Source of the DNA: a virus
Taxonomy: Duplodnaviria > Heunggongvirae > Uroviricota > Caudoviricetes
Virus record (IMG/VR): IMGVR_UViG_2740892106_000001
Direction: 5' to 3' (one strand)
DNA: 42,783 nt
Of the stretch, positions 38,201-41,200 are shown piece after piece. Position numbers: made by a program. Numbering within the stretch: the stretch's first letter is position 1; each line of letters starts with the position of its first letter.

Positions 38201-41200
38201 TGATCCCGATCGAACCGTACAACCAGGAAATATTGTCCTTGCCTTACCCAAAGGGACCACAACACCTGTCATTCGTAAACTGGAGATAGAAGGGCCGGAT
38301 ATTCTTTTAGTCCCCACGAATCCTCGCTACCCTTCAATTATGCTGGATGATCTATCTTGCATATTGGGCGTATGCTTTAAAATTCAACAAGATATTTAAC
38401 CAACCTCATCTATTTGATTAACTGTATGCCATCGTGGCGATGGCTTAACAGCTGCCTGCTTAAAATGTTTTGATAAAAAAACATTGACCTGAAAAGTTCA
38501 TTTTCCTAAACTTCATTCATTCCCTCACCCCACCCCACAGAATGCAGGGCAATACTTCGAGTTACCAGGCAGTGGTCAGGGGTTAAGTAGCCAGCCCGAG
38601 GCGTAAGAACATGACGGCAGGGTTCAACTTTAATAACTATGCAGCAGGTTTTTGTTCCGCTACCCCGGCGTTAAGGGGAAATGAGGTCAACATGGATACT
38701 ATCGATCTTGGCAACAACGAATCTCTGGTGTACGGCGTGTTTCCCAACCAGGACGGCACATTCACCGCGATGACGTATACCAAAAGCAAAACGTTTAAAA
38801 CCGAAAATGGTGCCCGTCGCTGGCTGGAAAGAAACTCAGGTGAGTGATATGGATTTCGACACAATCATGGAAAAGGCTTACGAAGAATACTTCGAAGGCC
38901 TTGCCGAAGGCGAAGAAGCTCTCAGCTTCAGTGAGTTTAAACAGGCGCTTTCCAGCTCGGCAAAATCTAACGGCTGATAAGCGAAGCAGCACCGCGAGGA
39001 ATCAGTATGCAGAAACGAGAACCCGTCATCATCGCGCCAGACTATACCGATGATGAACTTTATGAGTGGATGCGCCAGAAAATTAATGCAGCGCAGGATC
39101 TGAAATGGGCCAATGAAGCCAGGGCTAAGCAGGCTGAAAATCTGTCCGCTCTGGAGCAGGATATCACCAATCTGGAAAAAGCAGCGGCATTAAGCATTGC
39201 CAGAATGATTACATACCCGCGTTAATAGCTAACCAACGAAGCTAAGGTTGGTAATTAAGGAGTTCTCCACGGGTGAGGTGGAGTGCGTGCGCCGGACACG
39301 GGTGAGCATCCGGCACTGACAGTTTACTGAAAGGATATTTCCATGAAAAGTCAGACCATAACGCGAAAGCGCACGGTGAGGTAGCTGGTTCATAGATAGC
39401 CTGTCGTTAAATTTTCGTCGACCGTGCGCTTCCGGTTGTGGCACTCCGCGAAATGGCGCGGCGGTAAGTATGGCGGGGGTATTCCTTCCCCGTTGAGGAC
39501 ACCGGGTTGTCAGGTTGACCATACGCTTAAGTGACAACCCCGCTGCAACGCCCTCTGTTATCAATTTTCTGGTGACGTTTGGCGGTATCAGTTTTACTCC
39601 GTGACTGCTCTGCCGCCCTTTTTAAAGTGAATTTTGTGATGCGGTGAATGCGGCTAAGCGCACGCGGAACAGTTAAAACCAAAAACAGTGTTATGGGTGG
39701 ATTCTCTGTATCCGGCGTTAATTGTTAACTGGTTAACGTCACCTGGAGGCACCAGGCACCGCATCACAAAACTCATTGTTGAGGGCGCGAAAATGAAAAC
39801 GTTATTACCAAACGTTAATACGTCTGAAGGTTGTTTTGAAATTGGTGTCACTATCAGTAATCCTGTATTTACTGAAGATGCCATTAACAAAAGAAAACAC
39901 GAACGGGAGTTATTAAATAAAGTATGCATTGTTTCAATGCTGGCCCGTTTACGTCTGATGCCAAAAGGATGTGCACAATGAATCCAGTATTTGCACTTAT
40001 TCTGACGGTTTTTCTTGTTTCCGGAGAGCCAGTTGATATTGCAGTCAGTGTTCACAGAACAATGCAGGAATGTATGGCAGCAGCAACCGAACAGAAAATT
40101 CCAGGCAACTGTTATCCGGTCGATAAAGTTATTCACCAGGATAATAACGAAATCCCGGCAGGATTTTAAAACAGCACCGTAATAAATATCCAGTTTCATT
40201 CTTATATGTCAGCAATGGCAGAGATTTGTTCACACTTAAATCTGTGATGAGGTTTACCAATAATGAGCACTGATAAAGAAGAATTTGCACTATATTGCGA
40301 AGCAAAAAATGACAAAGTAAGAAAACGCCTAGGAATTAAAGGTGGTTTTTACTGGACTACAGCAAAAAAATTATCTGTTGCAATCTCCCGCTGCATTACC
40401 GCAATGGATGACAACGATTATGATGAAGACGACTTTAAAAAACCCGTCCGCGTCAATTTGCCCGTTGTTGACGACCTTCCGCCAGAAGGCGTGTTTGATA
40501 CTGAATTCTGCAACCGCTATGAAAAAGGCGGGAAAGATGGCATCACAATGACATTTATCGGCCCTTCCCCCTCTGTTCAGGACAAACCAGCCAGCACTGA
40601 CAATACCAACATCAACGGCGAAGACATGACTGAGATTGAGGAGAGCATGCTTCTGCCTGTCTCCGGTCAGGAACTGCCCATTCGTTGGCTTGCTCAACAC
40701 GGCAGCGAAAAACCAGTAACGCACGTTTCACGCGACGAACTCCAGGCATTACACATTGCACGGGCTGAAGAACTACCGGCTGTTACTGCCCTGGCTATTT
40801 CGCATAAAACCAGTCTGCTCGACTCGCTGGAGATTCGCGACCTCCACAAACTGGTTCGTGACACTGACAAAGTTTTCCCTAATCCTGGTAATTCAGACCT
40901 GGGACTAATAACTGCTTTTTTCGAAGCATACCTGGACGCTGACTACACTGATCGGGGTCTGCTGACAAAAGAGTGGATGAAAGGAAATCGTGTTTCACGC
41001 ATCACCCGCACGGCTTCCGGTGCTAATGCTGGCGGTGGGAACAAAACCGATCGCAATCCGAATTTAGTACACACCCTCGACACACTGGATGTGGAGATTG
41101 CAGCAGCCACACTTCCGATGGATTTTAATATTTATGAAATTCCGGGCAGCGTTTATCGTCGCGCAAAAGAAGTAGTCCTGAACAAAGAAAGTCCGTTCAA

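Follow-up and report, generated by a model that had tools for sequence, protein, structure and literature searches.

The 42,783-nucleotide (nt) stretch of viral DNA recorded in IMG/VR as IMGVR_UViG_2740892106_000001, hereafter the window, carries, with a probability that we put at about 93%, an intact dicBF operon (ydfA-ydfB-ydfC-dicF-dicB-ydfD) in the early-left unit of a lambdoid Escherichia coli prophage. Judged by its sequence, the module is the same operon as that of the Qin (Kim) prophage in E. coli K-12, and as such it is already known and holds nothing surprising to a specialist: its small RNA (sRNA), its proteins and its processing have been studied since 1989-1990, and the module resides in most E. 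coli genomes. The value of the present copy is modest and lies in its context: the surrounding prophage looks complete, and the repressor above the operon has an S24 peptidase domain where Qin has the non-cleavable DicA. Identity, gene order, intact frames, predicted folds and covariation are direct observations on this DNA, and no element of it contradicts the reading as an intact dicBF operon, the parts of which are given below.

38692-38847 (+): ydfA, 51 amino acids (aa), DUF1391 (Pfam, 98.5 bits), protein identical to that of K-12
38849-38977 (+): ydfB, 42 aa, protein identical to K-12 YdfB
39007-39225 (+): ydfC, 72 aa, protein identical to K-12 YdfC
39226-39565 (+): untranslated leader of 340 nt between the ydfC stop and DicF
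39566-39618 (+): DicF sRNA, 53 nt, followed by the U-run UUUUU at 39619-39623; recognised by Rfam, K-12 identity and fold
39626-39777 (+): dicF-dicB spacer RNA, five helices, closing duplex of about 21 base pairs (bp); conserved core at 39635-39766 (132 nt)
39793-39981 (+): dicB, 62 aa, GAGGG ribosome-binding site at about 39782-39786; recognised by Pfam DicB and K-12 alignment
39978-40169 (+): ydfD, 63 aa, DUF1482 (Pfam PF07358), annotated in K-12 as 'lysis protein'

The original prediction, made from the letters of the window, had placed a DicF match with a terminator hairpin and a T-run at 39566-39623, and this proved exact. When the whole window was scanned with the Rfam DicF family (RF00039, gathering threshold of 48 bits), 39567-39618 on the plus strand was matched with 76.7 bits (E=2.4e-15) over model positions 1-52 of 52, and all 53 nucleotides of 39566-39618 are identical to annotated K-12 dicF (b1574), the 5' seed and the CUCCG loop included. 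The predicted terminator hairpin spans 39581-39617 (-15.9 kcal/mol) and runs into UUUUU, and the RNA lies between ydfC and dicB in the lambdoid early-left operon. Thus, by score, identity, terminator and location, it is a DicF as far as sequence can define one. Processing by the nucleases RNase E and RNase III, binding to Hfq and repression of ftsZ translation are known for the identical RNA of K-12, and would by analogy also apply to this copy. Calculation with RNAduplex on whole sequences gave energies between DicF and the ftsZ leader that were indistinguishable from those of shuffles, and the DicF-like RNAs of Rac type and Shiga toxin (Stx) type, treated in the same way, likewise gave energies that did not stand apart from shuffles, so that the calculation is uninformative on pairing.

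Alignment to dicF and dicB of K-12 Qin also left the dicB frame undisrupted. The DicB of 62 aa that had been foreseen downstream of DicF matches Pfam PF05358 over residues 1-62 of 62 with 135.4 bits (cut-off 27), and 60 of its 62 residues are those of K-12. The YdfD-like product is likewise confirmed by 87.9 bits to DUF1482 (cut-off 25) and by 56 of 63 residues identical to K-12 YdfD; the ATG of ydfD overlaps the TGA of dicB (ATGA), and therefore the two genes are coupled, as had been proposed. The roles in FtsZ inhibition and phage resistance that had been attached to the cassette are those reported for the K-12 genes (10.1101/2023.04.14.536235; PMC5069750), and this DicB may, by analogy to K-12 DicB, cause a MinC-dependent block of division and a ManYZ-dependent exclusion of phages. 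In a scan with one genome per species, DicB was found only in Escherichia and Shigella, plus one contig of a 'Veillonella' metagenome-assembled genome (MAG) that is probably mis-binned. Near-identical dicB or spacer sequences are seen in a 'Veillonella parvula' MAG contig (L007), in 'Aeromonas phage AP1' and in 'Actinobacillus phage pPE4'; these matches probably come from mis-binning, contamination or E. coli prophage DNA and do not indicate host range.

Compared with the Qin region of K-12 (NC_000913.3, 1645500-1654500), the operon is 92-100% identical to the one studied experimentally, with the same gene order (ydfABC-dicF-dicB-ydfDE) and spacing, and with a leader and a spacer about 97% identical. 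The surroundings differ. Instead of the 135-aa DicA, there is here a 212-aa repressor with a helix-turn-helix (HTH) and an S24-peptidase domain and with its own TGTTTT-N6-AAAACA operators; the distance from the promoter to ydfA is 292 nt against 166 nt in K-12, and the two sequences are largely unrelated; the downstream exonuclease gene is intact while its K-12 counterpart is the pseudogene ydfE; and the prophage around the operon looks complete.

About 330 nt of untranslated, structured-looking leader had been described upstream of DicF. Its length is in fact 340 nt, as in K-12, where 329 of the 340 positions are identical, and its untranslated and structured character holds: a stretch of 400 nt that begins at the ydfC stop and takes in DicF has a better predicted fold than shuffled sequences (z=-3.0, 0 of 100 shuffles), and the dominant feature of the leader is a long imperfect hairpin predicted at 39356-39441. 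In K-12, transcription begins at dicBp, which lies upstream of ydfA, no further promoter was found inside the operon, and RNase III yields a 190-nt DicF precursor that is trimmed to 53 nt by RNase E (10.1101/2023.04.14.536235). It is to be noted that 190 nt counted back from the 3' end of DicF leads to 39429, inside the 3' arm of the hairpin. As the published RNase III cut maps into this hairpin, the structured leader is explained by a known processing signal. By analogy, RNase III would be expected to cut near 39428/39429 to form the 5' end of the 190-nt precursor, and the same arithmetic assigns 39429-39565 to the 137-nt 5' domain of the precursor. The leader is a mosaic, separate blocks of which recur in Stx phages, P1/P7 and others. 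The 'dicF-like region' of the P1 record matches the 5' domain of the 190-nt precursor.

How might DicF then be parted from the message that follows? Between dicF and dicB lies a spacer of 174 nt, 168 of which are identical in K-12. An alignment of 25 diverse copies, from which a covariance model was built, gives a structure of five helices with 97.2% of the cells paired and with changes on both sides in 13 of the 30 pairs. None of 500 shuffles reached any of five measures, and when the 3' partners were slid by 1-3 columns, pairing was 28-38% with at most 4 pairs having double-sided changes. The model finds one copy in the window, at 39635-39766 with 143.7 bits (the window sequence being part of the seed), and one in Qin. 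Among lambdoid copies, the structure is closed by a longer helix of about 21 bp, 39626-39646 with 39757-39777, which ends 4 nt before the GAGGG ribosome-binding site of dicB. Two reviews of the primary work describe RNase III processing of read-through dicBF RNA into a 72-nt form of DicF (PMC9438474; PMC5069750); 72 nt counted from 39566 reaches 39637, a position inside the closing duplex that is again arithmetic from the published length. In our reading, the spacer would be an RNase III module separating DicF from the dicB-ydfD message.

The region upstream of the operon contains the following elements.

37439-37717 (-): Cro-like repressor gene, Pfam P22_Cro 57 bits; its true start is likely an internal ATG near 37669
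37744-37761 (no strand): operator TGTTTTAAAATCAAAACA, palindrome between the divergent cro-like and cI-like genes
37761-38399 (+): cI-like immunity repressor, 212 aa, HTH and S24 (LexA-like) peptidase domain
38466-38483 (no strand): operator TGTTTTGATAAAAAAACA, palindrome abutting the -35 hexamer of the early-left promoter
38484-38512 (+): predicted pL-like (dicBp-like) sigma-70 promoter TTGACC-17-TAAACT, 9/12 in a consensus scan, after the repressor gene

In Pfam, the cI-like repressor scores 50.5 bits for Peptidase_S24 and 22 bits for HTH_3, the latter just below the cut-off of 23 bits. Perfect TGTTTT-N6-AAAACA occurs at only two sites in the 42.8-kb window, 37744-37761 and 38466-38483; as the same operator stands both at the divergent genes and at the early-left promoter, the layout is that of lambdoid shared operators (pR/pRM plus pL). 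The dicBF operon runs in the same direction as the 212-aa repressor gene, which is divergent from the P22_Cro-like gene, and its promoter occupies a position equivalent to dicBp upstream of ydfA in K-12. In its divergent repressors and shared operators, the region is, from its sequence, a lambdoid immunity switch, and the pL-like promoter with operators that had been suggested upstream of the module is supported by the 9/12 site and the two perfect operators, its function being inferred.

From these elements and the K-12 literature, the life of the transcript may be pictured as follows. A cI-like repressor on the operator beside the -35 hexamer would keep the operon silent; once repression is lifted, a polycistronic RNA would start about 170 nt upstream of ydfA. 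Most transcripts should end at the DicF terminator, as expected from K-12 experiments on a near-identical sequence. RNase III would cut the long leader hairpin to give the 190-nt precursor, and RNase E would convert it to the 53-nt Hfq-binding DicF, which, as in K-12, would repress ftsZ together with xylR, pykA and manX. Transcripts that read through would enter the structured spacer, where RNase III would cut the closing duplex to give the 72-nt form of DicF and, we infer, to release a dicB-ydfD mRNA with a short 5' untranslated region (UTR). DicB would then direct MinC to the septum to depolymerise the FtsZ ring and would block ManYZ-dependent phage entry, while YdfD, the annotated lysis protein, would be translated by coupling to dicB.

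Some points weigh against this picture. The expression of this copy, like its processing and phenotypes, is argued from K-12 parallels, and the positions at which RNase III would cut were calculated from the lengths of published fragments. Promoter-like sites of 9/12 are only slightly more frequent than in shuffled sequence (8 against 5.0 +/- 2.3), and the window does not reach the integrase end of the prophage. By eye, the repressor linker (...LSLQQAASWSD...) has no obvious Ala-Gly cleavage site, so that self-cleavage is uncertain and SOS inducibility is not established; DicA of Qin has no such site, and its repression is lifted by the antirepressor Rem (10.1101/2023.04.14.536235). Moreover, northern blots of K-12 did not reveal a full-length ydfABC-dicF-dicB transcript (10.1101/2023.04.14.536235), and the extent of read-through to dicB is therefore uncertain. 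Is the operon then a silent relic as in the defective Qin, conserved in sequence and never meaningfully expressed for phage or host? The K-12 operon is tightly repressed and toxic when expressed, Balasubramanian et al. (2016; PMC5069750) found dicBF at that time only in defective prophages, a 2016 paper reported that about 2,000 phage genomes yielded no hit to DicB or DicF, and in KV7, the E. coli genome that matches most closely, the neighbouring cro and integrase genes are frameshifted. We nevertheless regard a relic as unlikely. In the window, neither the seven genes nor the sRNA are damaged; the repressor is intact too, and so is the 813-aa exonuclease gene, whose K-12 counterpart is a pseudogene. 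The YdfA, YdfB and YdfC proteins are unchanged from K-12 despite nucleotide differences. All or part of the dicBF region is found in 60 deposited phage records; Tritos, vB_EcoS-689R5, PhiR42_1 and others among them were submitted as complete genomes of phages, and several of these hold most of the 1.9-kb region. Such records, whose number is growing, speak against the earlier notion that defective prophages are the only place where dicBF persists. The same gene order is seen in phage Tritos, whose record annotates DicF, and in the KV7 prophage (99.5% identity).

Two other explanations concern single parts of the operon. Coding by the leader is barely credible, either as a 111-aa minus-strand open reading frame (ORF) at 39229-39564 or as a small plus-strand ORF, and we rejected it. 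The minus-strand frame is open in the window, in K-12 and in Tritos, and a hypothetical protein is annotated at the leader in some phage records; but this ORF starts with TTG, is unannotated in K-12, and turns 11 nucleotide differences from K-12 into about 8 amino-acid changes, and substitutions that are nearly all non-synonymous give no sign of purifying selection on a protein. On the plus strand, the only ATG ORF, of 13 codons at 39343, has CTG in place of its ATG in K-12 and Tritos, and the region is a mosaic whose blocks are separately common to other phages. As to the spacer, a permissive scan with Rfam STnc100 (RF02076) matched 39630-39770 with 38.8 bits against a gathering score of 47 bits (E=1.9e-6), over model positions 21-154 of 206 and with the 3' terminator part missing; related spacer loci score 30.8-43.8 bits. 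Below the gathering score and partial, the match makes the spacer a relative of STnc100 and not a member, and membership was rejected. One may still ask whether the spacer is a stand-alone sRNA gene of STnc100/PasD type and neither a processing signal nor the 5' UTR of dicB, given this sub-threshold match, the report of STnc100 and PasD as prophage sRNAs, and about 27 viral contigs, among the matches listed, in which the same core is directly followed by a DicF-like seed and a terminator and resembles a free-standing sRNA. This is improbable in our view, since, besides the partial and sub-threshold match, the core runs into the ribosome-binding site of dicB 16 nt later and a consensus scan found no promoter-like site between DicF and the spacer element, just as no internal promoter was found in the K-12 operon.

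The spacer element is not confined to this operon: similarity searches also found its sequence in phages that have another gene in the place of dicB. That gene is kilR in Rac-SA53, kil in PhiR5_2, pPE4 and 666R9, and the TerB-like tciA in P1, P7 and D6. A pattern scan of viral contigs gave at least 120 stretches and, together with other loci, 138 occurrences; among these matches listed, 62 have DicB as the next ORF, 21 have Rac-type Kil, 7 have TerB/TciA, 6 have an Ash/Rha antirepressor-like protein and a few have a small unknown ORF. In 27 further cases the element runs directly into a DicF-like seed and terminator. The DicF seed UUUCUGGUGAC precedes DicB in 56 of the 62, and a DicF-like RNA with the seed GCUGUGUGUAG precedes Rac-type Kil in 18 of the 21. 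It looks like sRNA, spacer and division inhibitor are co-inherited as one cassette of which the spacer is the constant part. In the Rac prophage of K-12 itself, the model finds the element with 129 bits; there it is flanked by kilS, an annotated sRNA, and by kilR, whose product inhibits FtsZ.

L142 3762-3894, NC_000913.3 about 1418261-1418393 (-): Rac spacer element, covariance model 129 bits

Thus, K-12 carries a pair of cassettes built alike: Qin has DicF-spacer-dicB, and Rac has KilS-spacer-kilR. KilS, an sRNA described in PMC8175672, resembles a paralogue of DicF whose seed differs. A shared RNase III-associated module in the leaders of dicB, kilR and tciA, related to STnc100, links these two loci, which have been studied separately, and it could help to show how phages that make both an anti-ftsZ sRNA and a toxic protein from one transcript keep the two in balance.

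With some doubt, we entertain the further possibility that the spacer is a distinct mobile cis-regulatory module which phages lodge after an sRNA of the DicF family and ahead of a small toxic gene. If so, its partners would be dicB, kil/kilR, the TerB-like tciA of P1/P7/D6 and an Ash/Rha antirepressor operon, and the core joined to a DicF-like 3' end would make STnc100-like sRNAs. Besides containing a site for RNase III, the invariant core (GGUGAAUGCGGCU, CCUGGAGGCACCAGG) could bind a host or phage factor or, alternatively, could control how well the toxin mRNA is translated or how long it lasts, by which sRNA and protein inhibitor would be produced from one transcript in a controlled ratio.

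The element also occurs in other arrangements. In about 27 viral contigs among the matches listed, a variant core with compensatory changes in the closing helix (GUUGUGGUG/CACCACAAC) leads straight into the DicF-like seed GCUGUGUGUAG and a terminator; examples are L023 8010-8232 and L042 7135-7329, whose STnc100 scores of 43.1 and 37.5 bits are below the threshold; this combination of a variant core and a DicF-like 3' end looks like a free-standing STnc100-like sRNA. On viral contig L027 (4747-5234), DicF (61 bits), the spacer element, isrK and C4 antisense RNA stand in a row, and this array of four RNAs is followed by an Ash/Rha antirepressor-like ORF. In P1-like phages (P1 67500-71500, L012; P7, L014; D6, L015), the spacer lies just upstream of tciA in the C1-controlled ban operon; tciA is TerB-like and is annotated with tellurite or colicin resistance or inhibition of cell division.

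Apart from Qin, several known systems invite comparison. The Rac kilS-kilR locus and the kil loci of Rac-like and Stx types share with the present operon a terminator-ended sRNA, an element of about 132 nt and a small FtsZ-inhibitor gene, a layout kept in Rac-SA53, PhiR5_2, pPE4 and 666R9; they differ in the 5' seed of the sRNA (GCUGUGUGUAG against UUUCUGGUGAC of DicF) and in that Kil/KilR (73 aa as annotated) is unrelated to DicB. In enterohaemorrhagic E. coli (EHEC) O157:H7, DicF is also found in lambdoid prophages, in several copies per genome (PMC5069750). Many of those copies have partial flanks, whereas the present one has complete ydfABC and dicB-ydfD. As for STnc100/PasD, the central part of the STnc100 model has its closing helix, GGUGAAUGCGGCU box and CCUGGAGGCACCAGG hairpin in common with the spacer core, but the core scores below the gathering threshold, has no 3' terminator domain, and lies in the early-left operon and not near Q or stx. 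In the N leader of lambda, too, a long duplex in the early-left transcript upstream of the ribosome-binding site of a regulatory gene is cut by host RNase III. The likeness drawn here is one of architecture; the downstream gene in the present operon is a division inhibitor and not an antiterminator. The put RNAs of HK022 offer an analogy only, being cis-acting structured RNAs of adjacent hairpins in an early operon of a lambdoid phage without N. A put-like antiterminator of HK022 type formed from the CGGGUGAG-loop hairpins at 39262-39314 was rejected, as these fold no better than shuffled sequences (z=-0.62). The spacer as such a put RNA was rejected as well: its model has no match in HK022 23000-32000, where the early promoters and put sites are expected, and it lies downstream of the DicF terminator and not upstream. 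Homology to put is thus rejected for both the hairpins and the spacer; an analogous antiterminator function may exist.

The context had been called functional-looking, and this description holds. The window has a full lambdoid gene set, with tail, head, terminase, lysis, tRNA, Q and replication genes at 96% identity or more to ordinary E. coli lambdoid prophages, and both the cI-like repressor and the gene that follows ydfD in the early-left operon are intact.

40263-42704 (+): exonuclease gene, 813 aa, intact

Its product scores 125 bits for Pfam Exonuc_VIII and 223 bits for Rv2179c-like 3'-5' exonuclease. When the 1.9-kb region was compared with complete E. coli genomes, matches were found in 4764 of 5426, of which 2254 carry at least 80% of the region, with a median of 2 places per genome and up to 10.

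Some further features of the prophage lie away from the operon. A sok antitoxin RNA at 33039-33213 (-) is matched by Rfam with 110 bits and belongs to a hok/sok-type locus, hokD being annotated equivalently in KV7. Between this locus and the replication module, a 444-aa FRG-domain protein is encoded at 33839-35173 (+), on the strand opposite to the flanking phage genes; the gene has the look of a moron and possibly serves in defence. The cargo in the corresponding interval of KV7 is different, consisting of a RES-domain protein and a Lit-family exclusion protein. Four tRNA genes lie at 29146-29455 (-) between Q and the lysis genes, namely Gly-TCC, Thr-TGT, Lys-TTT and one with a CAT anticodon, the last of which is Met according to ARAGORN and Ile in the KV7 annotation. 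Finally, an IS009 RNA match of 196 bits is found at 4514-4712 (-) in the tail-fibre region.

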